Shown here: in pieces, positions 5,809 to 64,000 of the stretch
How positions within the stretch are numbered: position 1 is the stretch's first letter
How the letters are laid out: every line of letters begins with the position of its first letter
Source: Hafnia paralvei ATCC 29927
GTDB taxonomy: Bacteria > Pseudomonadota > Gammaproteobacteria > Enterobacterales > Enterobacteriaceae
DNA: 64,000 nt
Direction: 5' to 3'
NCBI RefSeq assembly: GCF_001655005.1
Contig: NZ_LXET01000009.1
Coordinates: forward strand, 43,706 to 107,705
Program-made: the position numbers and the translations under genes
The notes under the pieces: generated by a model
Database searches by the model: none
Seen by the model: only the letters and a program-made list of their open reading frames with translations
What the model was told of the DNA's origin: nothing

Positions 5809-8094
5809 TTACTCCCTGATGAGTCCGGCGAGAACAAATTCGTTAAACAGCGTTTTAGGCGTGATAGGCAAGGTGTTAATTGCCACGCCGGTCGCCATGC
5901 GGATTGCATTCCTGATTGCCGGAGCGGGCGAGATAATCGGTGGTTCACCCAGTGCTTTATGCCCATACGCAGACTGCGGTTCGTAGGTGTCAACAAAGGC
6001 ACAGTCCAGATCGGGCAGATCCATAATGGTGGGGAACTTATAGTCCAGCAGGTTTGGATTGCGTACTACACCGGTTTTCTCATCGATGATCATCTCCTCA
6101 AACAGCGCCCAACCAATTCCCATTCCCATGCCGCCATGTACCTGACCTTCCGCTAACTGAGGGTTAAGAATTCGGCCAGAATCATGCATATTGAGGATCT
6201 TGTTGATGGTGACTTTGCACAAAGGAATATCGATAGTGAGGTCGACAAAGGTGCAGCCAAAAGCCGGTGGGTTAGTCGTGGTTTTGTGCGAGATTTCAGC
6301 CAGCAACTGAGCGCCGATTTCCTGATGATAATAGGCATGCATAGAGACGTCAGCGACGCTCATCAGTACCATTTCAGGCTGCGCGGCCATCACCACATTT
6401 CCATCGAGTAGCGTAAGCCCCCACTGAGGCTGGTGGCTAATCAACTCGGCATGAGCCAGAATTTTGCTACGCAGCTCGGTTGCCGCCTGTCTAACCGCGG
6501 GCGCTGCTACGTAGCTCTGACGCGATGCAAATGCGCCCGGATCGTAGGCGGTAATATCGGTGTCTTGGGTGGAGATGACGCGAATATGCTCAAAAGGGAG
6601 TCCTAGCGTTTCCGCCGCCATCTGAGCGAATACGGTATCCGAGCCTTGCCCAATTTCCGTCGCGCCGATTTGCAGATTAACCGTACCGTCTTGATTAAGC
6701 AGCATTCGAGCGCCCGCAATTTCAACGCCGACCGGATAGGTATTGGAGCCATAGCTGAAGCAGGCAATGCCAATGCCGCGCCGCACATCTCCGTTTTGCT
6801 GCAGGCATTCGGCTTTGCGCGCGTCCCACTCAAACATGTCGCGGCCTTTTTCCAAGCATTCGACTAATCCAGCGCTGTATATGGTTTTGTGGTTAACCGG
6901 ATTAATATCGCCGCTGCGTGCGGCATTCAGTAAGCGCACCTCTACGGCATCCAACCCGAGTTTTTCGGCGGCATCATCTAATAAGCACTCAAGGGCAAAA
7001 GCGACCTGAGGCGCACCGTATCCCCGCATGGCACCCGCGGCAGGATAGTTGGAGTAGTGGGTGAGGGCCGAATAGCCAAAGGCACTGCGGGGATAGAGAT
7101 AGCTAATTTTGTTGGCACCGGCAGATGCAATAGAGTGCCCATGAGAAGCGTAAGCGCCGGTATTGGAGAGCACATCAAGCTGATAGCCCGTGAGTATGCC
7201 GTCTTTATTGAGCCCTAACTTGGCATCAATGCTAAATGCATGGCGAGTCCGAGAGGCAAAAAAACACTCTTCACGACTCAATTCGACTTTAACCGGAATC
7301 CCCCCCATTTTCAGCGTTAGAAACGCTGCCATAGGTTCTTCTAAAACGTCCTGCTTGTTACCAAAACCACCGCCAATATAGGGTTTAATCACGCGAATAT
7401 TTGACCATGGTAATCCCAACGCTTGAGCAACGGTGCGGCGAACGATTTGAGGAATTTGGGTGCTGGACACAATCACAATGTGATCGGGCTGCTCCATATA
7501 AGCGAAACAGGTCACGCTTTCCATGTGGCAATGCTGAATCACTGGCGTTTGAAAATGAGCGCAGAGCTGTAAATCAGCCGCGGAGATCGCCTCTGTGGGC
7601 TGATTAGCGCTGATGTCGCTTTTTTTCAGTATGTTTCCCGTTGGATGGATGGGCGTTGCGCCTTCTGCCAGTGCGGCTTGGGCATTAGTGATGACCGGTA
7701 ATTCTTGATAGGTCACGTCCACAAGTGCTGCGGCGCGTTCTGCCGTAAGCGCATCTCTGGCGACCACAATCGCCACCCCATCACCAAAATGGCGGACGTG
7801 CTGGGTCAACAGACTACGGTCGGCAACGTCACGTTTGGCGGCCTCTAAGGACCAAGCGTGCCCAGCGGTAGGGAAGAGGAGTTCGGGCACATCTTTAAAG
7901 GTAAAAATCGCTTCTACGCCTGGCATGGCAAGCGCAGCAGAAGTATCAATAGCGGTGACCTTCGCATGGGCAACAGGACTGCGTACGTATTTGGCATAGC
8001 GCATCCCCGGCATTTGATGATCGTCGGTATAACGGGCGCGTCCGGTAACCTTTGCTTCAGCATCAACCCGTTTGAGTGGTGATCCTAACGACAT
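5809..8094 (-). CDS. xdhA: Xanthine dehydrogenase-family molybdopterin-binding subunit. The ORF is open to 8262, but the start is placed at the Met at 8094.
   Basis: 762 aa from MSLGSPLKRVDAEAKVTGRARYTDD…, collinear with E. coli XdhA throughout. Strong RBS AAGGAGAAAGCT before the ATG at 8094. Confidence 0.85.
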   Translation of the reverse strand: MSLGSPLKRVDAEAKVTGRARYTDDHQMPGMRYAKYVRSPVAHAKVTAIDTSAALAMPGVEAIFTFKDVPELLFPTAGHAWSLEAAKRDVADRSLLTQHVRHFGDGVAIVVARDALTAERAAALVDVTYQELPVITNAQAALAEGATPIHPTGNILKKSDISANQPTEAISAADLQLCAHFQTPVIQHCHMESVTCFAYMEQPDHIVIVSSTQIPQIVRRTVAQALGLPWSNIRVIKPYIGGGFGNKQDVLEEPMAAFLTLKMGGIPVKVELSREECFFASRTRHAFSIDAKLGLNKDGILTGYQLDVLSNTGAYASHGHSIASAGANKISYLYPRSAFGYSALTHYSNYPAAGAMRGYGAPQVAFALECLLDDAAEKLGLDAVEVRLLNAARSGDINPVNHKTIYSAGLVECLEKGRDMFEWDARKAECLQQNGDVRRGIGIACFSYGSNTYPVGVEIAGARMLLNQDGTVNLQIGATEIGQGSDTVFAQMAAETLGLPFEHIRVISTQDTDITAYDPGAFASRQSYVAAPAVRQAATELRSKILAHAELISHQPQWGLTLLDGNVVMAAQPEMVLMSVADVSMHAYYHQEIGAQLLAEISHKTTTNPPAFGCTFVDLTIDIPLCKVTINKILNMHDSGRILNPQLAEGQVHGGMGMGIGWALFEEMIIDEKTGVVRNPNLLDYKFPTIMDLPDLDCAFVDTYEPQSAYGHKALGEPPIISPAPAIRNAIRMATGVAINTLPITPKTLFNEFVLAGLIRE

Positions 8095-45893: not shown

Positions 45894-48248
45894 TTAAAAC
45901 AGTCCAAGCTGACCAGCAACCAGCGTAGAAAAGTCATCCTGCATGAAGGGTAAAATAGCATCGGCGACCGGCTGAAGCTGGCGCGAGAGGTAATGATCGT
46001 AGTCAATGGGCGCACGTTGGCACTCTAATGGCTCCGGCCCTGCGGTGGTGATGACATAGCTAATCCAGCCGCCGTTTTGATACTGCAACGGACGATTGAG
46101 CTCGCGGTTATATTCATCGGCAATTTTCGCCGCGCGCGCATGAGGTGGGACGTTACGCTGGTAATCGCTCAGCTTTCGTCTTAGGCGTTTACGATAAACC
46201 AGTCTGTCATCGAATTCAGCGTTCATCAGACGAGCCGCATAATCACGAATAAACTCCTGATACGGCTGTTTGAGGAAAATACGTTGATACAGTTCTTGCT
46301 GAAATTGCTGTGCCAAAGGCGTCCAGTCACTGCGCACGGTTTCCATTCCTTTGTACACCATTTCATCGCCTTTAAGCCCTGCATAGCGTTTTTTACTGCC
46401 CAGTTCGGCACCGCGAATGGTTGGCATTAAGAAGCGGCGATAGTGACATTCATATTCTAATTCTAATGCACTTTCTAAACCGTATTCGGTGCGAAGATGC
46501 TCTTTCCACCACTGGTTTACGACGGTAATGAGATGTTGTCCAATGGCGGCGGCTTGCTGTTCGTCGTGTGCCCGATTAAGCCACACAAAGGTCGAGTCGG
46601 TATCTCCGTAAATCACGGGATAGCCTTCAGCCTCGATCAACTCTCGGGTGCGGCGCATAATTTCGTGTCCGCGCATGGTGATCGATGATGCCAAACGCGG
46701 ATCGAAGAAGCGGCAACCGCTTGAGCCAAGCACACCATAAAAGGCGTTCATGATGATCTTTAACGCCTGTGAGAGCGGCGCATTCTTCTCTCGTTTGGCG
46801 GCTTCGCGCCCCTGCCAGATTTGGCTAACGATGTCTGGTAAACAGTGCTGTGCGCGGGCAAAGCGCGCACCGCGAAAACCGGAGATAGAATGCGCGTCGT
46901 CTGGTTGTCGCAAACCTTCAATTAAGCCGACGGGGTCGATAAGAAACGTACGGATAATCGAGGGATACAGGCTTTTATAGTCCAACACCAACACGGAGTC
47001 ATACAAACCGGGGCGCGAATCCATCACAAAGCCGCCGGGGCTCGCCTCTTCTGGCAAATCGCCCTGATTAGGCGCGACAAATCCGACGCGATGCATACGT
47101 GGCAGATAGAGATGGGTAAATGCGGCGACGGAGCCACCGTTACGGTCAGCATTCAGGCCTGTGACCGTCGCGCGCTCAAGCAAAAACGTCATCAAATGCG
47201 TATGGTCAAAAATGCGGGTCACTAGCTCACAGTCTTTCAGGTTGTAATGAGCCAGCGCTGGCTTATCTTCGCGAAAGCGTCGGTCGATCTCCGACATCCG
47301 ACTGTAAGGATCGTCCATGGCTTTACCCTCGCCCAACAGCGTTTGTGAAACGTTTTCTAAGCTGAACGAAGGGAAATTCCAAAATGCGCTTTTGAGCGCC
47401 TCAATGCCGTCAATAATCAACCGGCCGGTGGCAGAGGCAAAAAAATGCCCTTGCTTAAAACCGTGCTCGCGCCATTCTAAAACGTCGCCACCGCGTCCTA
47501 AACGCAGCGGTATCGCGTAGCGTTCGGCGTGTTTTTGCAATACGCGTAGGTCAAATTGGATCAGGTTCCAGCCGATGATCGCATCAGGATCGTGCTGCGC
47601 TATCCACTGATTTAACGCTTCTAATAGCTGAGGACGACTGTTGACATAGATCAGTTCGAAATCTAACTGACTGGCATCACCGTTTTCTGGCCCCAACATA
47701 TAGACCACGCGCTGGCCACAGCCATGAAGTCCGATGGAATAGAGTTCACCGTGCATGGTGGTTTCGATATCCAACGAGACTAGCTTAAGCGTGGGGCGAT
47801 AGGAGGGGTTCGGTTTCAATTGGGTATTACGCCAAACGCCTTGAGTATCCTGATGGCCAGAAAACCACACCGGAGCACAGATGAAACGCTCCATCAGATA
47901 GCGATCCGGTGGGCGAATATCGGCCTCATACAGCGTGATTCCATGTTCCTTGAATGTCTTTTCAAGGTTCATCAGTTGGCGATAGCTGTGACAATAGACG
48001 CCGACCACGGGACGATGATGAAAATCCTTCATCGGCAATGGTTTGATTTCCACATGACGTTCGCTATGCAGCAGTTTTTCAGCTTGTGGAAGCTGCTCCG
48101 CGGGCAAAAAGGCCACTGCTTTCTGCGGCGGTAGAATAACTTTTTGTGGTCCATTATCGGTTGCCAGCCACAGCTCCACCGACACGCCGGCCGGTGTATC
48201 CCGCCAATGACGGGTGAGGACGAAGCCTTGCTGTGGGGATTGGGTCAT
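45894..48248 (-). CDS. polB: DNA polymerase II (family B)
   Basis: 784 aa, collinear with E. coli PolB (…[11 protein letters not shown]…, …YGDTDS…). Confidence 0.95.
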
Positions 48249-48442
48249 CGTGGTGCTTTTGGCCGATAAAGGGAAAGTATTGATTGCTAGTATGAGTATT
48301 TATACAGTGGTTGTCTACGGGGTGCTTGGCTCTTGTATGTTAGAACGATGTAATGTTTCGTACGCCTAATGCACCGAAACTGATATGCACTCCGTGCCAG
48401 CGTCCGAGCAAGGCAGCTCAATCTCCGACTTCCATCCAGATT

Positions 48443-48911
48443 ATTTCTATACTAGAACGGTGAAGGTTTTCGTCCGCCCGTCAGCATTTGTGTTTCCATG
48501 ACACGGCTGGCGTAGGCGTCCGACGAGCGGTTGCCAGCGCGCAACCTCTCGACTCTCGCGCTTTTTACCGCGTCGCTTGGCCGACCGGTCTCAGAGCGCA
48601 CATCCTGTACGCCCTCGACCTACCGCCATCTTCCCTGATGGCGGTTCTAAAATGCATTCTTTCAACACAAAAATACGTCAGAACCTTTCTATGTAAAAAT
48701 GGTGAAAGTTTTCGTCCGCCCGTCAGCGTTTGTGTTTCCATGAAACTGCTGGCGTAGGCGTCCGACGAGCGGTTGCCAGCGCGCAACCTCTCGACTCTCG
48801 CGCTTTTTTACCGCGTCGTTTGGCCGACCGGTCTCGGAGCGCACATCCTGTACGCCCTCGACCTACCGCCATCTTCCCTGATGGCGGTTCTATCATGCAT
48901 TCTTTCAACAC
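48443..48911 (+). repeat. Tandem array of two ~242-bp structured repeat units (subfamily A)
   Basis: Units starting GGTGAA(G/A)GTTTTCGTCCGCCCGTCAGC at 48459 and 48701 are more than 95% identical. T-run length differs (5 vs 6 T). Confidence 0.85.
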
Positions 48912-48934
48912 GAAAAAACAAAACAATATTGTTT

Positions 48935-48958
48935 TGCCTTTGCCTTTGCCTTTGCCTT
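48935..48958. repeat. Hexanucleotide microsatellite (TGCCTT)4
   Basis: Four perfect tandem TGCCTT units in the intergenic region. Confidence 0.9.
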
Positions 48959-49029
48959 TTTAATCGTTTAAGTCTTGGTAGGGAGAGCCGCCGATACAGG
49001 GATGTATCGGCGGAGTTTGGGGCGCCCTG

Positions 49030-49176
49030 GATGGGCGATACCAAACCGGAGCGGGAATGGCGTCTCGGATAAAAGCGCGCGAGTTGAGAGCCCCCGCGCA
49101 ACGGGGCTCTCATCGGTCGCCTTCGCCAGCAGTTTCATGGAAACGCATTTGCTGACCGGCGAACGAAATCTTACAC
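49030..49176 (-). repeat. Inverted, diverged copy of the same repeat family (subfamily B)
   Basis: The reverse complement reads GTGTAAGATTTCGTTCGCCGGTCAGCAAATGCGTTTCCATGAAACTGCTGGCG…CTCGCGCGCTTTTATCCGAGACGCC. It shares the GTTTCCATGA core. Confidence 0.8.
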
Positions 49177-49371
49177 AGCTGCTTCATAAACGGTTGGCGA
49201 ACGAAATATGACACAGTCGCTTCATAATCGTCATTCAGCCGAAATCCCCACCATTACCTATACTCATTAAGTTACTCATTTGTAAATAAACGTTTATCCC
49301 CTCAATGAGATGTTGACGACAAAGAGGGCGCTACGCAAAATCGCTGGCTCATTATTTCCGGTGGAAGAATT

Positions 49372-50139
49372 ATGGAAGCATACCTGCAACACTTGGTGAC
49401 TCAGTCAGTGGCCTACTCATTGATCGCCGTATTTTTAGTGGCGTTTTTAGAGTCTCTGGCGTTGGTGGGGCTGCTTTTGCCGGGAACCGTCATGATGGCG
49501 ACGCTAGGTGCTCTGATCGGTAGTGGACAGGTGAATTTTTACTATGCTTGGGGCGTGGGGATTTTGGCGTGTTTTGCTGGTGACTGGATTTCATATTTTA
49601 TTGGCCGCGCCTTTAAAGATCCATTACATCGTTGGTCATTTATCAAGAAGAATAAAGCGCTGCTGGATAGAACAGAACATGCGCTGCATCGTCATAGCAT
49701 GATGACAGTGTTGATTGGACGCTTCGTAGGCCCTACTCGTCCCGTTGTGCCGATGGTGGCGGGAATGTTGGCGCTCCCACCGCGCAAATTTATTCCACCC
49801 AATATCATTGGCTGTATTACGTGGCCGCCGGTTTATTTCTTTCCAGGCATTCTGGCGGGAGTGGCGATTGATATCCCCGCCGGTAGTGGCAGTACGCTAT
49901 TCAAAGTGCTGCTCGCGTTAGTTGTGGTATCGATTTGGATTGCTGGCTGGCTAAGTTGGCGCTGGTGGCGAGAAGGGAAACGCTCGGCGGATAAACTCTC
50001 TCAGTGGTTAACACCGCTGCGCCTGCGTATCGCCACCGTGACCATGTGGGGTTTGGCCGCAGTGAGTTTTGTCTTTATGCACAACCATCCCCTCATGCCC
50101 ATTTATCGCTCGCTATTGTGGAAGGTGGTGCATTTTTAA
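49372..50139 (+). CDS. yabI: DedA-family inner-membrane protein
   Basis: 255 aa, MEAYLQHLVTQSVAYSLIAVFLVAFLESLALVGLLLPGT…, DedA/SNARE-associated family. Confidence 0.85.
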   Translation: MEAYLQHLVTQSVAYSLIAVFLVAFLESLALVGLLLPGTVMMATLGALIGSGQVNFYYAWGVGILACFAGDWISYFIGRAFKDPLHRWSFIKKNKALLDRTEHALHRHSMMTVLIGRFVGPTRPVVPMVAGMLALPPRKFIPPNIIGCITWPPVYFFPGILAGVAIDIPAGSGSTLFKVLLALVVVSIWIAGWLSWRWWREGKRSADKLSQWLTPLRLRIATVTMWGLAAVSFVFMHNHPLMPIYRSLLWKVVHF

Positions 50140-50207
50140 GGTTAGGGGCGGGTTGATACCAGCCCTTGATATTTAACCTTTCTCAGTTTTGTTATGAAAG
50201 CTTGGGG

Positions 50208-51206
50208 TTAACATCCGTCAGTGTTAAAGCTATCGATGACAGAAGATAAATTATCATTCATCGTGTTTGCTTCCTGCTGAGCAGGGGAACCTCGTTGCAT
50301 ACTCGCCATACCTGGGAAGGCGGCGGGGGGAACCGTGGTGTATTCTGTTCTATCATGTTTCAGTTCATTGCTAATAGTGCGCGCTGAGGCTAAAAATAAA
50401 GTCATGCTACTCAGACAGGTACCGCCGGTAACCGTTTTAGTTTTGTCATAGCCTTTAACTAGCGTGTTCATCAAGTTGATATTTTCATCCAGTTTGGCGA
50501 GGCCGGTATTATCCGCTTGAGAAATGGCTTCTTTTATTTCACGGCTAATGAGTTTGCCGTAGTAAATAACGCCTATTTTATAATAGGACAATGATTCTTT
50601 TTTAGCGCTATCGAACGTCTGCTTTATATTTTTCTCATCAAGTATCTGTATCTGTTCTTTAAACTCATTCTCCGCTAACAGAACTTTTTTGAGTTGTTCA
50701 AACAACGCGGGTTCTTTCTCCATAAATAGCTTACCACCGTCTGAAAGATATTCCTTAGTACTTCCATACATGGATAGTTCTTGATTCAGTGGTTCGAGAA
50801 CGTTGAGCGCTTGCAGGTATTGTTCCGCTGCAACGTCCAGTTCAGCGAGGTTTCCTTCCATTTTAAGGGCGTTCTCTAGCCCTTTTTTCTTGCCTTGAAT
50901 ATTATTGTCGTTGACTGCGAAGTAATTTTTTAACGGTTTTTTATTTTCAATGTTGTCGTTGATGAATTGCATCTGCGTCTCAAAATCACCGGAGAAACCA
51001 TCGGTAATGAACTCAGCATTAGCAACATCAATATAAGCATTGTATTTAACTATTTGGTGTTGCTCTTTATCTCTAACCTGTTTCTGCGTGTCGTTCTCTG
51101 ATGTCGCAGTCTTGGTGCTTTTATTATCATCACAGGCAGTGATGGTTGTGGTGCTTGCCAGCAATATGCACAGTGCTAGCTTTTTCCATTTATATAAAAT
51201 TTTCAT
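50208..51206 (-). CDS. YiiG-like (DUF3829-type) lipoprotein; AT-rich, likely horizontally acquired
   Basis: 332 aa with lipobox LLASTTTITAC. Lys/Glu/Asn-rich. Local GC is markedly lower than the flanks. Confidence 0.55.
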   Translation of the reverse strand: MKILYKWKKLALCILLASTTTITACDDNKSTKTATSENDTQKQVRDKEQHQIVKYNAYIDVANAEFITDGFSGDFETQMQFINDNIENKKPLKNYFAVNDNNIQGKKKGLENALKMEGNLAELDVAAEQYLQALNVLEPLNQELSMYGSTKEYLSDGGKLFMEKEPALFEQLKKVLLAENEFKEQIQILDEKNIKQTFDSAKKESLSYYKIGVIYYGKLISREIKEAISQADNTGLAKLDENINLMNTLVKGYDKTKTVTGGTCLSSMTLFLASARTISNELKHDRTEYTTVPPAAFPGMASMQRGSPAQQEANTMNDNLSSVIDSFNTDGC

Positions 51207-54678: not shown

Positions 54679-54729
54679 TTTGCACTCCGTGAGTTAAGTC
54701 AGGTCGCAAAGGTCTTTGAGCAAGCGTGG

Positions 54730-54846
54730 ATACGCTCTCAAATCCCTCCGCCGGTATTATCCGGATCAGGTTCGACGGGTTTCTCTCAGCAAAAAACTGG
54801 TTGCGCCCGCGTTGATCCGATGTCGTGCGGTGCTCGTAATCCTCAC
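54730..54846 (-). ncRNA. TPP (thi-box) riboswitch in the thiBPQ leader
   Basis: Minus-strand sequence …GCUGAGAGAAACCCGUCGAACCUGAUCCGGAUAAUACCGGCGGAGGGA… matches the thi-box consensus (CUGAGA; ACCUGAUCYGGNUAAUNCCRGCG). Confidence 0.85.
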
Positions 54847-56784: not shown

Positions 56785-56905
56785 ATTTCAGCAGATGAAA
56801 GAGAAAGAGGTGAGTAATCATTTGTCTCTCCGACATCAAAGAGTGTTTCTGAGTAATGGTGCTTTTCACCGACCAGCAGGTCTGCCTGCTGGTTTTTTTC
56901 TGTTA
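56785..56905 (+). ncRNA. sgrS: SgrS small RNA (short form; no convincing SgrT ORF)
   Basis: The 3' region AAAGAGTGTTTCTGAGTAATGGTGCTTTTCACCGACCAGCAGGTCTGCCTGCTGGTTTTTTT matches the SgrS seed, terminator and poly-U. The 5' end is approximate. Confidence 0.65.
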
Positions 56906-58132: not shown

Positions 58133-58137
58133 GTAAT

Positions 58138-59715
58138 TTATTCTCCTTTGATGATCTCCCAACTTAGCCCAAAACGCGCCAGATATTTACGTAGACGGTC
58201 GGCGTCATTGGGCTGTTTTTTCAGTTGGCGTGATACGGAGAATAGCTTACGTCCTGCCTCGGATAAGCTGTCTGACGAGCGGCAGACGCTGATCACGCTG
58301 GCTAATTGGCTGCGATCGAACAGATCTAACTCGGGAAGATCGGGTAAAATTTCTGGCTGATCTTTTTGCCAGTTTTGTTGTAGCCGAGCGATTTCTTCTT
58401 GTACCAGTTCGTCATCAATACGGCCTGTATCCGCAAGTGTTGCCATACGGGTGACCGAAGCCGCTAGTTCACGGAAGTTTCCTCGCCATTCAGCCTGCTC
58501 GGAACAGGCAAATTGCAGATAGCGTTGACGTGCTTCTTTATTGAAACGCACCTGTGCTTGCTGTTCTTGGCTATAGCGGTTGAGTTCAAAATCCAGATTC
58601 GGCTCTATATCTTCTCGCCGCTGCGCCAAGCTGGGGAGAGGAAAAGTCCACATATTGATGCGCGCATATAAATCCTCGCGAAAACGTCCTTGCTTGACCC
58701 ATTGCCGCATATCGCGATGGGTGCCTGCAATGAGTTGAAAATCGCTGGAAACCTCTTTATCTGAGCCAAAAGGTAAAAACCTTTTTTCTTCGATTACTTT
58801 GAGCAGCATGGCCTGTTCATCGAGTCCTAACTCTCCGATCTCGTCCAAAAACAGCACGCCGCCGTCGGCTTCTCGCAGCAGGCCGCTACGCGCCTGTAGC
58901 GCACCGGTAAATGCCCCTTTGATGTGACCAAACAAGGTTGACATCGCGTTGTCCCCGCGTAGCGTCGCACAGTTTACGGCCACAAATCGCCCGCTAACTT
59001 TATGCCGTGATTGTCTCAACTGGTAAATACGCTGTGCCAAAAATGACTTACCCGCCCCGGTGGGGCCAGTCAGCAGAATAGGTGCCGTCGAACGTAAGGC
59101 AACGCGTTCAATCTGATCAATCAGCGTATTGAAGGTGGCATTACGAGTGGCAATCCCCGATTTCAAAAATGAAATTGAAGCCTGCTGTTCACGCTGGAAG
59201 CGACGAGTTAATTTGCTATAGCGACTAAGGTCAAGATCGATAATGGAGTAAACACCGGCGGGAGTGGCCTCAGTTTTCTCTTGGCTTTTAGGCGCTGGCG
59301 AGGTTTGTAGCAGGCTGGCTGGGAAATAGCGGGCTTCAGCGAGCAGGAACCAGCAAATTTGTACCACATGGGTGCCGGTGGTGATGTGGATTAAATACTC
59401 TTCGTTATCGGTATCGAAAGGGTAATGGGTGGCAAAGTCGAGAAATGCAGTATAAACCTCTTCAAAATCCCACGGGTCGTGCAGATTAACTTGATGCAGG
59501 CAAACCTGAGTGCTGCCGAGCTGGGCAATATCATCGCTTACCTGCTGCGCCATGCCGAGATCTCTTGGCTGATACAGAAGTTCGAGCCGGTCAATGGGCA
59601 AATCAGGCTGTTGGCATAGTCCTACCGTCGGTCGCCATTTATTCCAACGATTTGCTCGTTTACCGCGCTTATCCAGAACAGTGCCCAGCACACCAATAAC
59701 GACTCTGCGCTTCAT
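58138..59715 (-). CDS. rtcR: Sigma-54-dependent transcriptional activator RtcR (N-terminal CARF domain, AAA+ sigma-54 activator domain, C-terminal HTH)
   Basis: 525 aa. N-terminus MKRRVVIGVLGTVLD…WNKWRPTV…YLIHITTGTHVVQICWFLLAEARYFPA resembles E. coli RtcR. Central GAFTGA-containing AAA+ domain (…GHIKGAFTGA…). Confidence 0.85.
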   Translation of the reverse strand: MKRRVVIGVLGTVLDKRGKRANRWNKWRPTVGLCQQPDLPIDRLELLYQPRDLGMAQQVSDDIAQLGSTQVCLHQVNLHDPWDFEEVYTAFLDFATHYPFDTDNEEYLIHITTGTHVVQICWFLLAEARYFPASLLQTSPAPKSQEKTEATPAGVYSIIDLDLSRYSKLTRRFQREQQASISFLKSGIATRNATFNTLIDQIERVALRSTAPILLTGPTGAGKSFLAQRIYQLRQSRHKVSGRFVAVNCATLRGDNAMSTLFGHIKGAFTGALQARSGLLREADGGVLFLDEIGELGLDEQAMLLKVIEEKRFLPFGSDKEVSSDFQLIAGTHRDMRQWVKQGRFREDLYARINMWTFPLPSLAQRREDIEPNLDFELNRYSQEQQAQVRFNKEARQRYLQFACSEQAEWRGNFRELAASVTRMATLADTGRIDDELVQEEIARLQQNWQKDQPEILPDLPELDLFDRSQLASVISVCRSSDSLSEAGRKLFSVSRQLKKQPNDADRLRKYLARFGLSWEIIKGE

Positions 59716-59851
59716 TGTTTATCCTAAATTATAAATGACGATATTTTAAGATAACTTTACACGCATTTGCTTCAAGGCGATATCGCGAGCGATAAAAATA
59801 AATGTCTTATTTTTCATGTGATTAATTTTTTATTTTGCTGTTTTTAAAAAA

Positions 59852-59867
59852 TGGCACGCTTTTGGCA
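59852..59867 (+). promoter_or_regulatory. Sigma-54 (-24/-12) promoter divergent from rtcR
   Basis: TGGCACGcttTTGGCA vs consensus TGGCACG-N4-TTGCW. GG and GC are at the correct 10-bp spacing, with one mismatch. Predicted TSS ~59878. Confidence 0.6.
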
Positions 59868-59959
59868 ATATTTATAACGCCACTTGCTGGGGTCGTAGGG
59901 ATTCTAAACTCCCACCGGCACATTAAGAACGCCAAGTTGCGTTATCTGCGATGTGTTCT

Positions 59960-60010
59960 GCCAGCGGTAGATGGCCTGGTTAACCTGGGTTCGAATCCCA
60001 GAACATCAAA
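59960..60010 (+). ncRNA. tRNA-like module (T-arm mimic) within the ~350-nt sigma-54-driven leader
   Basis: CTGGG-TTCGAAT-CCCAG (59985–60001) is a perfect 5-bp T-stem with a 7-nt TΨC-type loop, followed by AACATCA with no CCA. It is not a canonical tRNA, since acceptor pairing is imperfect. Confidence 0.5.
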
Positions 60011-60225
60011 TATTCCTGATGGGTAGGAAATTTAGAAATTTATTGTAGTGCCAGCCCGTGTAGCCAAGCCGTTAATGGTTACCGTCGTAGAAAACCAGCT
60101 AACACGCTGGGCAGGTGGCAAGGTCTCGTTAGCGCGAGTATCGGCTAGAGAGTTCTCCCCACCCGCTTCGCGTCACTGCCCGTTTTCTAAGACAGCGGGC
60201 TAATTAATCACAAGGAAGAAAAAAT

Positions 60226-61362
60226 ATGCGTAAGAACATCATTATACAAAAAGGGCAGATCGGTTTACTGACGAAGAAAGGCGATTATCAGAAAGTACTC
60301 GAAGCGGGAGAATATCGCTTTTTTGACTGGACTAATCAGTTGGCAGTGACGGTGGTTAATCTTAGCGATAGCAGAGTGGAACCCGCACTGGCCGAACATT
60401 TACGCAGCTACCAGCCTGAGTGGGTTGAACGCTATTGCACCGCGGTGGATTTATCTGAACAAGAGATCGGCCTGCGCTATGAAAATGACATTTTACAGGA
60501 AATATTGCCACCGGGGACGCGTCGTCTTTATTGGTTGAATGGCAATCAGCAACGCATCGAACGAATTGAGGCTAATAATGTAGAAGTACCGTCAGAGATT
60601 GTGGCTGCGCTGCATCAACCGAAATTACGCAACCGTACGATTAAAGGTGGAGAAGGGGTGTTATTGGTGCAGGTGCCAGCGTGGCATGTCGGCATATTAA
60701 AAATTGATGGTGCAACACAGGCGTTGTTAAGCCCTGGTATTAGTGGATATTGGCGCTTCAACCATGCGGTGGAAGCCGAAATTGTTGATACCCGTTTGCA
60801 GGTGTTAGAAGTCAGCGGGCAAGAGATATTGACCCGTGACAAAGTGAATCTTCGGTTGAACTTAGCCGCTAACTGGCGCTACAGCGATGTGCTGCAATCA
60901 TTTGCTTTGGTTGCTAAACCGCTGGAGCACATTTATCGCGAGTTGCAGTTCGCGCTGCGTGAGGCTGTTGGTACACGCACATTAGACGAGTTGCTGGAGA
61001 ATAAGCAGATTATAGACGACATCGTGAGTGAGCAGGTGTCGCGGAAACTGGTTGGCTATGGCATTGAGGTCGTATCGCTAGGTGTTAAAGACATTGTTTT
61101 ACCGGGTGATATGAAAACCATTTTGTCGCGTGTGGTTGAAGCGGAAAAATTGGCTCAGGCTAATGTGATCCGCCGTCGTGAAGAAACCTCTGCGACGCGA
61201 TCGTTATTAAATACGGCGAAAGTCATGGAAAACAACCCCGTGGCGCTGCGCCTAAAAGAGTTAGAAACGTTGGAAAGAGTCGCAGAGCGTATCGATAAAA
61301 TATCCGTGTTTGGTGGATTAGATCAGGTGCTAAACGGGCTTATACAAATTAAAGGGATGTAA
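60226..61362 (+). CDS. SPFH/Band-7 (stomatin/slipin-like) domain protein with a ~190-aa N-terminal extension and no predicted TM segment
   Basis: The C-terminal half aligns with the stomatin core (…LDELLENKQIIDDIVSEQVSRKLVGYGIEVVSLGVKDIVLPGDMKTILSRVVEAEKLAQANVI…ALRLKELETLERVAE…). RBS AAGGAAG is 7 nt upstream. Confidence 0.75.
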   Translation: MRKNIIIQKGQIGLLTKKGDYQKVLEAGEYRFFDWTNQLAVTVVNLSDSRVEPALAEHLRSYQPEWVERYCTAVDLSEQEIGLRYENDILQEILPPGTRRLYWLNGNQQRIERIEANNVEVPSEIVAALHQPKLRNRTIKGGEGVLLVQVPAWHVGILKIDGATQALLSPGISGYWRFNHAVEAEIVDTRLQVLEVSGQEILTRDKVNLRLNLAANWRYSDVLQSFALVAKPLEHIYRELQFALREAVGTRTLDELLENKQIIDDIVSEQVSRKLVGYGIEVVSLGVKDIVLPGDMKTILSRVVEAEKLAQANVIRRREETSATRSLLNTAKVMENNPVALRLKELETLERVAERIDKISVFGGLDQVLNGLIQIKGM

Positions 61363-62165
61363 TGTTACCTATGGAACTCAGAACTTCATGCGGCGTAAGC
61401 GCCGCAATGCGGATGCGTATTCAACAGACGCTGTGTGCGTTGGAAGAGGAATATCAGATACGCATATTGTACGCCTGTGAATCAGGCAGCCGAGGCTGGG
61501 GATTTGCTTCAACGGACAGTGATTATGATGTGCGCTTTATTTACGTTCATCGACCAGAATGGTATCTGCGAGTTGAGCCCGGTCGTGATGTGATAGAAAT
61601 GCCAATTGACGATGAGTTAGACGTGTGTGGCTGGGAGCTACGTAAAACGTTGGGGTTGATAAAACGCTCGAACCCAACGTTGATGGAATGGCTGGATTCC
61701 CCGATTGTTTATCGCAATGAGGAAAGGGCGACCGCTGCATTAAGAGCATTGTTGCCCGATTACTTCTCTGGCTTACGTGGGCGTTATCACTATTTGTCGA
61801 TGGCGCGGAAAAACTTTCGTGGGTATCTGCAAGGTGAAGAAGTTCGCTTGAAAAAATACTTCTACGTGTTGCGGCCATTGCTGGCGGTGCGTTGGATTGA
61901 AGCAGGTAAAGGTGTTCCGCCTATGCGTTTCGATCAATTAGTGGCTGGCACTGTTGATGACGCTGATTTATTGGATGAAATAGCGCAATTATTGTATGCA
62001 AAATGTGAAGCCAGCGAAGCTAAGTATGGGCCTCGGATGAAGAAGATCCATGAGTTCATTCAATATGAGCTGGATGACAATCTTTCTCGTTGTGAAATGG
62101 TAGACAATGTTGCATGTAGTGATGATGTTTTGAACCGATTGCTGTTTCAGGAGGTTAATTGTTAA
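61362..62165 (+). CDS. Pol-beta-superfamily nucleotidyltransferase (minimal NTase fold, ~267 aa)
   Basis: GS…D.D motif ACESGSRGWGFASTDSDYDVRFIY (hG[GS]x9-13Dh[DE]h). Start overlaps the upstream stop (TAATG). The second Met at 61371 is an alternative start. Confidence 0.65.
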   Translation: MLPMELRTSCGVSAAMRMRIQQTLCALEEEYQIRILYACESGSRGWGFASTDSDYDVRFIYVHRPEWYLRVEPGRDVIEMPIDDELDVCGWELRKTLGLIKRSNPTLMEWLDSPIVYRNEERATAALRALLPDYFSGLRGRYHYLSMARKNFRGYLQGEEVRLKKYFYVLRPLLAVRWIEAGKGVPPMRFDQLVAGTVDDADLLDEIAQLLYAKCEASEAKYGPRMKKIHEFIQYELDDNLSRCEMVDNVACSDDVLNRLLFQEVNC

Positions 62166-63844: not shown

Positions 63845-64000
63845 CCGTCCACTTGTTCTCTGCACTCGCGCGCTTTTATTCGAGACGCCATCTTCGCTCC
63901 GGTTTGGAACGTCAATATCCTATGGGATTACGGTGAAATGTTTCGTTCGCCGGTCAGCACATGCGTTTCCATGAGCCTACTGGCGAAGGCGACCGATGAA
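63845..64000 (+). repeat. Further copies (subfamily B) of the ~242-bp repeat family, truncated by the window end
   Basis: 63866–63908 CTCGCGCGCTTTTATTCGAGACGCC…CCGGTTTGG is the 3' module. 63930–64000 GGTGAAATGTTTCGTTCGCCGGTCAGCACATGCGTTTCCATGA… is the 5' module. Confidence 0.8.

Follow-up and report, generated by a model that had tools for sequence, protein, structure and literature searches.

What are the three structured units of about 242 bp that stand, two in tandem and one inverted, between polB and yabI in Hafnia paralvei ATCC 29927? We addressed this question in a window of 64,000 nucleotides from contig NZ_LXET01000009.1 ("the window" means this whole stretch, and positions count from its first letter), together with related loci from other Hafnia sequences. 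A preliminary description, made from the letters of the window, had taken the units for a tandem family of small RNA (sRNA) genes. Its original observation, a tandem pair with an inverted copy, structured and non-coding, was confirmed, and its identification was not. All three belong, as arms, to a single copy of a mosaic repeat that is dispersed through Hafnia genomes, and we are confident that each of them is an arm of a repeat bearing the RNA motif TwoAYGGAY.

The spacer between the divergent genes polB and yabI measures 1,123 bp and holds all three units. The features at this locus, and a second locus of the same family, are listed below; R1 is a covariance model that was built from C-type cores only.

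45894-48248, minus strand: polB, the left flank of the repeat spacer.
48336-48426, plus strand: fragment of an L-type arm (head and first hairpin), the outermost remnant on the polB side (nhmmer, L seed).
48441-48678, plus strand (unit orientation): unit A, an A-type arm with its head GGTGAAGGTTTTCGTCCGCC at the left and its tail at the right; its RNA strand is likely the minus strand.
48585-48646, minus strand: GGA-loop core of unit A, with the hairpins CCGCCAUC-AGGGAAG-AUGGCGG and GCGUAC-AGGAU-GUGCGC (model R1).
48686-48919, plus strand: unit B, a second A-type arm and tandem copy of A (Tandem Repeats Finder, repeat search, BLAST, nhmmer).
48828-48889, minus strand: GGA-loop core of unit B, two hairpins (model R1).
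48916-48959, no strand: AT-rich centre, the meeting point of the arm tails, with the palindrome CAAAACAATATTGTTTTG and (TTTGCC)4.5.
48960-49195, minus strand: unit C, a C-type arm, inverted (repeat search, alignment, nhmmer).
48981-49069, plus strand: TwoAYGGAY-like core of unit C, two hairpins and a possible closing stem (Rfam, R1).
49158-49230, minus strand: two head repeats 38 bp apart, reading GGCGAACGAAAUcUUACAC.. on the plus strand, the outer terminus on the yabI side.
49372-50139, plus strand: yabI homologue, DedA family, the right flank of the repeat spacer.
63855-64000, plus strand: a further locus of this family, lying downstream of a gene for a DASS-type transporter (BLAST with the units, nhmmer).

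Units A and B are tandem copies, as had been described, and only the stated identity of more than 95% was slightly generous, since 93.5-95% was measured: Tandem Repeats Finder gave a period of 243, 1.9 copies and 95% matches over 48459-48917, and BLAST gave 93.5% over 232 nt. A repeat search placed the direct repeats at a spacing of 242/243 bp with 91-95% identity. With slightly wider limits, the units span 48437-48678 (A), 48679-48921 (B) and 48960-49200 (C). The inverted diverged copy is unit C, in which 49109-49176 is 84% complementary to 48702-48769 over 68 nt, and the three units can be aligned from end to end with a mean column identity of 84%. The hairpins named at the outset were recovered by folding, with z = -2.6 to -3.0 for the 5' halves and -3.1 to -5.4 for the 3' halves against dinucleotide shuffles (for unit A, -3.0 for the 5' half on the plus strand and -4.7 for the 3' half on the minus strand), and the compensatory changes proposed for the second hairpin are borne out by many two-sided changes across 56 family members. 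No open reading frame (ORF) crossing the units had a Pfam match, in line with the non-coding reading. In nhmmer, unit C scored 235 as the seed itself, and C-type arms at other loci scored 110-208; the fragment on the polB side matched the L seed at model positions 46-135 with a score of 38, and it is also present in the strain loci L002, L003 and L005-L008. The microsatellite (TTTGCC)4.5 of the centre was placed at 48933-48959 by Tandem Repeats Finder. The family is not limited to 48443-49176, the extent first given to it, since the window has a fourth copy at 63855-64000. This copy consists of a 5'-truncated C-type piece and the first part of a full C-type arm cut off by the window end, and in loci L036-L043 it is complete, with a C arm, a centre and an inverted L arm followed by leuD.

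The same architecture was found throughout the family when it was annotated by nhmmer with three seeds (A, C and L). At every locus the arms face each other, with heads outward and tails toward the centre, so that one or more units in one orientation lie on one side of the centre and one or more in the opposite orientation on the other. An arm runs from the head through two hairpins and the two-hairpin core to the tail, and arm lengths range from 230 to 335 nt over three subfamilies, namely A (the tandem units here), C (the inverted copy) and L (longer, about 335 nt). The centre is AT-rich and 20-76 bp long, often with (AAAAGAC)n/(GTCTTTT)n runs at other loci, and it is flanked by unlike arm types in 32 of 33 cases. 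The outer ends carry one to eight copies of a 37-39-bp head repeat (GGTGTAAGGTTTCGNNCGCC ... TTTATG ...), whose head box GGTGTAAGGTTTCGNNCGCC is 20 nt long. The head repeats form pure tandem arrays, with 8 x 39 bp in L068 (about 6258-6530, minus strand) and 5 x 37 bp in L057 (1160-1345), and the number of head repeats differs between the orthologous loci L061 and L068. Where both flanking genes are known, about 16 loci are convergent, 9 co-directional and 2 divergent, polB-yabI being one of the divergent two, and arms begin 13-50 nt past stop codons. The L arms of L036, L062, L065, L097 and L105 have an extra insert of about 75 nt (CAAATTTGCCTGGAGCAAATTTGAACAACGCTTGCGTTGG...) inside the second GGA hairpin region, and such arms are split by nhmmer at model position ~232.

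Dispersal is extensive. A metagenome scan with a degenerate first-hairpin motif, which catches part of the family only, returned 59 stretches, with about 50 of the matches being clear family members on many contigs, and clustering by flanks gave at least 29 distinct genomic loci, 18 of them within a single metagenome. At polB-yabI itself, eight contigs with identical YabI carry one, two, three or four tandem A-type arms in the spacer, and in a sister species, whose YabI is 96% identical, this spacer is filled by other combinations of related units. All 16 loci that were found in two or more samples are occupied throughout, including between two Hafnia species whose flanks are 81-88% identical; no empty site was found among the fetched loci, and length differences between orthologous loci are whole or partial units. 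In relatives with 75%-identical YabI, the polB-yabI spacer measures 179-183 bp, compared with 775-1470 bp in Hafnia, and this short spacer keeps the LexA-box-like and promoter-like landmarks without the repeat. Since the shared loci are all occupied and the distant relatives lack the repeat, the repeat is probably an insertion older than the split of the two Hafnia species, and it would since have been altered by unit duplication, deletion and replacement. It would have entered the polB-yabI spacer after Hafnia parted from the relatives that keep the 180-bp spacer; the A/B pair may have arisen by unequal crossing-over, and recombination among copies may reshuffle the arm content. In one strain (locus L004, 3876-5705), the gene that precedes the repeat and yabI is pmbA/tldD-like instead of polB, and a HicAB pair and barnase/barstar lie close by; the rearrangement breakpoint lies inside the repeat, and the inverted C arm is absent from that copy.

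Outside Hafnia, blastn in distant mode against 5,426 complete E. coli genomes gave no match to the units, nor did plasmid, phage and viral contig collections. A scan for GTCAGCNNNTGNGTTTCCATGA in a genome collection of 185,579 species returned 27 chance matches in unrelated taxa and none in Hafnia, which probably reflects masking or missing Hafnia in that collection; we did not count it as absence, because the GTCAGCNNNTGNGTTTCCATGA motif is abundant in Hafnia metagenome contigs. A literature search on Hafnia repeats or miniature inverted-repeat transposable elements (MITEs) found nothing relevant. The repeats of the present family break Hafnia assemblies and can be taken for sRNA genes. In L036, runs of N stand beside the repeat.

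The identity of the core came from Rfam. In unit C, TwoAYGGAY (RF01731) matched 48989-49046 on the plus strand with 23.4 bits (E = 0.5); the hairpins of the C core are CCGCCGAUACA-GGGA-UGUAUCGGCGG and GUUUGG..CGCCC-UGGAU-GGGCG..CCAAAC. Units A and B gave no TwoAYGGAY match at E <= 10. When 47000-51000 was searched as one stretch at E <= 1, nothing was reported, and the motif emerged from shorter stretches and related loci. In short stretches of other loci, an L arm scored 42.6 bits, a C arm 35.9 and an A arm 33.5; eight L arms pass the gathering score of 43 (44.7-57.3 bits), and A and C arms give weaker matches of 23-36 bits on a constant relative strand. Among these, L048 (5575-5725) holds a full-length, threshold-passing match in the polB-yabI spacer of the sister species. 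All TwoAYGGAY matches lie on the centre-to-head strand, which is the minus strand for A/B and the plus strand for C. The "3' module" of the preliminary description had been read on the plus strand of the tandem units, and the sole curated RNA-family match sits in this module but on the other strand. It had been stated beforehand that the first reading would fall if the unit matched a repeat or motif already known, and TwoAYGGAY is such a match.

The covariance model R1 connects the window units with one another. It was needed because MAFFT misaligns the core hairpins of A and C; in a joint MAFFT alignment of A and C units these hairpins were missed by RNAalifold. Searched over the whole 64 kb, R1 matched unit B with 19.8 bits (E = 0.0012) and unit A with 16.1 bits (E = 0.017), in both cases at model positions 8-69 only, without the outer stem P1, and it also matched A and L arms at other loci; unit C reached 115 bits, but C is in the seed. 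Minimum free energy folds of the relevant strand contain both core hairpins in A, B and C. Across 67 distinct sequences, 91.4% of cells were paired, compared with 67.8% after shuffling and 32-49% with slid partners, and two-sided changes were seen in 23 of 27 core pairs. Helices 2-4 were 88-95% paired with two-sided changes in 19 of 22 pairs, and P1 (GAGAGCC/GGC-G-UCUC) is possible in C, helix 1 being 85.9% paired with two-sided changes in four of five pairs in an alignment that is model-fitted. GGA is present in both loops of 65 of the 67 sequences; in C the loops read AGGGAU and CUGGAU, in A/B AGGGAA and CAGGAU, GGA often follows a G or an A instead of a Y, and a literal AYGGAY was not found. 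The window units are tied to the threshold-passing L arms by shared heads, shared hairpin domains and R1 matches. Judged from their sequences, the L-type arms can be regarded as bona fide TwoAYGGAY RNAs, with C, A and B of the window as progressively more diverged relatives.

Weinberg et al. (2010, PMC2864571) found TwoAYGGAY in gut metagenomes, gamma-proteobacteria and Clostridiales and described it as a likely RNA whose function was not known, and a 2025 preprint terms it "relatively unexplored". The Hafnia family shares with it two adjacent hairpins whose terminal loops contain GGA, possibly with a closing outer stem, an occurrence in gamma-proteobacteria and the gut, and many copies per genome. 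The differences are threefold. First, the window units stay under the curated threshold, with 23.4 bits for C and no Rfam match for A/B. Second, their loops are CAGGGAUG, CUGGAUG, CAGGGAAG and ACAGGAUGU instead of the literal AYGGAY. Third, the window units are set in a larger arm, with a head array and two more hairpins, within a convergent two-arm repeat. The units are best seen as a divergent form of an orphan motif already on record, in a repeat setting on which the cited TwoAYGGAY papers are silent. In the supplementary alignment of PMC2864571, the TwoAYGGAY rows of Psychromonas ingrahamii (NC_008709) have long flanks in common at >=5 loci and extra CAGGG-loop hairpins, which suggests that TwoAYGGAY belongs to a dispersed repeat in P. 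ingrahamii too. Since Rfam sees one of the three arm types, annotation misses most copies.

What, then, might the repeat do? In 89 of 94 arms it is the GGA strand that gives the more stable fold, and the core holds 41 G-U pairs on this strand compared with 21 on the other. The consensus selected for CsrA in vitro by systematic evolution of ligands by exponential enrichment (SELEX) is RUACARGGAUGU, with GGA in a hairpin loop (PMC4347634). Unit C carries AUACAGGGAUGU at 48994-49005 on the plus strand, which matches this consensus at 12 of 12 positions and likewise places GGA in the loop of a hairpin. The consensus was counted 24 times in 775 kb of Hafnia loci, all 24 in arms on the GGA strand, where about 0.4 occurrences would be expected by chance (our own estimate). 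Units A and B have ACAGGAUG on the minus strand at 48601 and 48844, and they also carry CAGGGAAG loops. Independently, TwoAYGGAY was predicted computationally in 2015 to bind CsrA (PMC4333381). On these grounds, we propose that selection would act at the RNA level on the GGA (centre-to-head) strand, which would be transcribed most plausibly through read-through from neighbour genes across the centre. With some 30 nt between them, the two GGA hairpins may bind one CsrA dimer, as decoys of the CsrB/RsmZ type do, and the repeats would be distributed CsrA-binding sites. A spacing of about 30 nt between sites suits bridging by one dimer.

The comparison with CsrB, CsrC, RsmY and RsmZ goes both ways. 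As in these sRNAs, GGA stands in hairpin loops, two GGA sites lie about 30 nt apart in the arms, and the C-type arms hold the perfect SELEX consensus; unlike them, each arm has two to three loop GGA sites rather than about 9-22, and the family has dozens of dispersed copies, instead of one or two genes, without sequence homology. No promoter and intrinsic terminator of their own were found for the arms (a UvrY/GacA box was not searched for), and with these not found the family fails as a CsrB-type gene. From its sequence features, it would work most like a CsrA decoy module, and it appears organised most like bacterial interspersed mosaic elements (BIMEs) or MITEs.

Several observations weigh against this proposal. 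The window units score below the Rfam gathering score of 43, and none is reported at threshold. The alignment behind the covariation was fitted to the model and consists of related paralogues. Whole-arm G-U counts, tried as a guide to the strand, were uninformative, being alike on both strands (about 5-6 on either strand in A and C arms, and 8.2 compared with 10.5 in L arms), and for the 5' half of unit A the plus strand gives the better fold (z = -3.0 vs -0.9). A sigma-70-like promoter was found in only two of 33 centres, and an intrinsic terminator scan scored 0 sites; with so few centre promoters and no terminator found, autonomous transcription of the GGA strand is unsupported, and the sole nearby promoter-like site is a weak minus-strand match at the A/B junction. 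At polB-yabI the arms sit between two divergent promoters, so the neighbours can supply no read-through there. The count of GGA triplets is near the expectation from base composition (4.6-9.4 observed, 5.5-7.5 expected). Finally, conserved hairpins and compensatory change are also expected for recognition at the DNA level by a transposase or another protein. In view of these points, we hold the identification firmly and the CsrA mechanism only as a best guess. For the whole statement, a dispersed TwoAYGGAY repeat with an RNA-level CsrA-binding function, our judgement leans slightly in favour, and the CsrA mechanism taken alone we consider less likely than not. It is rather improbable that the repeats form a genome-wide distributed CsrA-binding system, in which dozens of TwoAYGGAY modules shortly beyond convergent gene ends would be exposed as RNA only on read-through of the centre. 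If it were true, the pool of free CsrA would depend on termination efficiency at many loci, or particular 3' untranslated regions (UTRs) would recruit CsrA, and an orphan motif would gain a function and the Csr system new wiring. TwoAYGGAY has been an orphan since 2010, and CsrA binding, a computational proposal, is the sole functional idea for it. Hafnia, a close and genetically tractable relative of E. coli, offers concrete RNAs and loci for this hypothesis, and what the present loci add is a motif that forms the conserved core of a large mosaic repeat, hairpins with a perfect SELEX consensus, and occupancy across two species.

The alternative that survives best, although we regard it as unlikely, is a non-autonomous MITE-like element without RNA function, in which the head motifs would be terminal repeats for a transposase encoded elsewhere, the internal hairpins and loops would serve DNA-level recognition, and the convergent-gene locations would be tolerated insertion sites. 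The "or a MITE" that the preliminary description kept as a fallback was nearer the truth than its sRNA headline. Dispersal over at least 29 loci, the polB-yabI spacer of relatives without the element and the rearrangement breakpoint within the repeat in L004 all fit such an element, as do the promoter and terminator scans, which gave none for the window units and a promoter in only two of 33 centres. Both outer ends carry TATG-N7-9-GTGTAAGGTTTCGNNCGCC in inverted orientation, that is, terminal inverted repeats, and inverted heads after TATG fit TA-flanked TG...CA termini, where the TA may be a duplication or part of the repeat. However, these inverted ends belong to separate arms and are often reiterated, which is atypical of MITE termini, and the two arms of one copy are of different subfamilies and make poor inverted repeats. 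A target-site duplication could not be verified, the repeat-free relative being too diverged for reading one, and no empty site was seen at any of the 16 multi-sample loci, even between species with 81-88% identical flanks. Plasmid, phage and viral collections were without a match, and the conserved loop feature is a CsrA-type GGA on one strand.

Quite improbable, in our view, is that the repeats are transcription-boundary elements, each arm being a terminator or 3'-end stabiliser for the incoming gene, like repetitive extragenic palindromic (REP) sequences or BIMEs, so that a convergent arm pair would insulate convergent genes from each other. The predominance of convergent loci noted above (about 16, with 9 co-directional and 2 divergent), arms that abut stop codons, occupancy of orthologous loci across species and a GC-rich hairpin followed by T4-6 within 6-11 nt, conserved on the incoming-gene strand, are consistent with this role. 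But hairpin and T-run are non-contiguous and fail the terminator scan, arms of 230-335 nt are far beyond what a terminator needs, the conserved GGA loops and head arrays are left unexplained, and at the window locus, flanked by divergent genes, a terminator would be superfluous. The comparison with known repeats is similar. Like BIME/REP, enterobacterial repetitive intergenic consensus (ERIC), YPAL and Correia elements, the family consists of dispersed, structured intergenic repeats mostly at gene 3' ends, and with BIME/REP and MITEs it shares a strain-variable copy number and broken short-read assemblies. A BIME is a mosaic of inverted Y and Z palindromic units, comparable to the inverted subtypes of the arms. 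Unlike REP (about 35 nt) and ERIC (127 nt), the Hafnia units measure 230-335 nt, and they have no GTAG-type head as REP does. Similarity to REP, BIME or ERIC was found neither by blastn on complete E. coli genomes nor by Rfam or nhmmer, and with none found the family fails as any of the three. Among the loci compared, neither a target-site duplication nor an empty site was seen.

Very improbable is the reading from which we started, that A and B are independent plus-strand sRNA genes of about 110 nt that start at TATACT/TAAAAAT, end at CTCGCGCGCTTTTT and pair with targets through the loop GUUUCCAUGA: their 5' halves do fold well on the plus strand (z = -3.0 and -2.7), pairing between the T-run and the 5' end is possible, that strand has a U-G pair in the stem GUCAGC/GCUGGC and the second hairpin covaries, but no plus-strand sigma-70 match precedes A or B, the loop GTTTCCATGA is variable across the family (TCTCTATGA, TTCACATAC, ATCAATGAAG), the Rfam match is on the other strand, and the family occupies at least 29 dispersed loci. 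The supposed -10 element is actually the TATG of the 37-39-bp head repeat and mostly lacks the invariant final T, and the GC-palindrome with its T-run, taken for an intrinsic terminator, was not scored as one. Since most copies begin 13-50 nt after a stop codon, they would be 3' UTR rather than separate genes.

Coding candidates were also rejected. The idea that every unit holds a conserved small ORF and its ribosome-binding site, as in type I toxin-antitoxin or small-protein repeats, was discarded on a start lost or a frame changed between units. Short ORFs such as MVKVFVRPSAFVFP in B are without a Shine-Dalgarno sequence (read by eye), those over the first hairpin are not conserved, and an ORF of the L arms with a Shine-Dalgarno-like GGAGG-ATG is not conserved either and has an early stop in the L048 copy. 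Analogies to type III toxI-like repeats, attC sites, CRISPR, retrons and the ends of Tn3, Tn7 or Mu did not hold, as either no associated gene was present or orientation or size did not fit.

Some observations concern the surroundings of the repeats. Just upstream of polB, 35 bp at 48283-48317 (CTAGTATGAGTATTTATACAGTGGTTGTC) are 97% conserved between the two Hafnia species, and the core TTTATACAGTG of this stretch recurs in distant relatives; by its sequence it looks like the SOS (LexA) box of polB/dinA, with the repeat inserted directly beyond it. In L062, a bacterial selenocysteine insertion sequence (SECIS) element (RF01988, 81 bits) lies at 7347-7401 in the gene adjoining the repeat locus, and thus a selenoprotein gene neighbours that copy. 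Over the whole window, Rfam at the gathering threshold reported only two RNAs.

54726-54820, minus strand: thiamine pyrophosphate (TPP) riboswitch, upstream of a thiamine ATP-binding cassette (ABC) transporter operon.
56794-56900, plus strand: SgrS, adjoining sgrR.

At 58137-62165, window coordinates obtained by offset from L036, a gene for an RtcR-type sigma-54 activator (minus strand) stands beside Band_7 and RlaP genes, not beside rtcBA; RlaP is an RNA-repair-associated nucleotidyltransferase.

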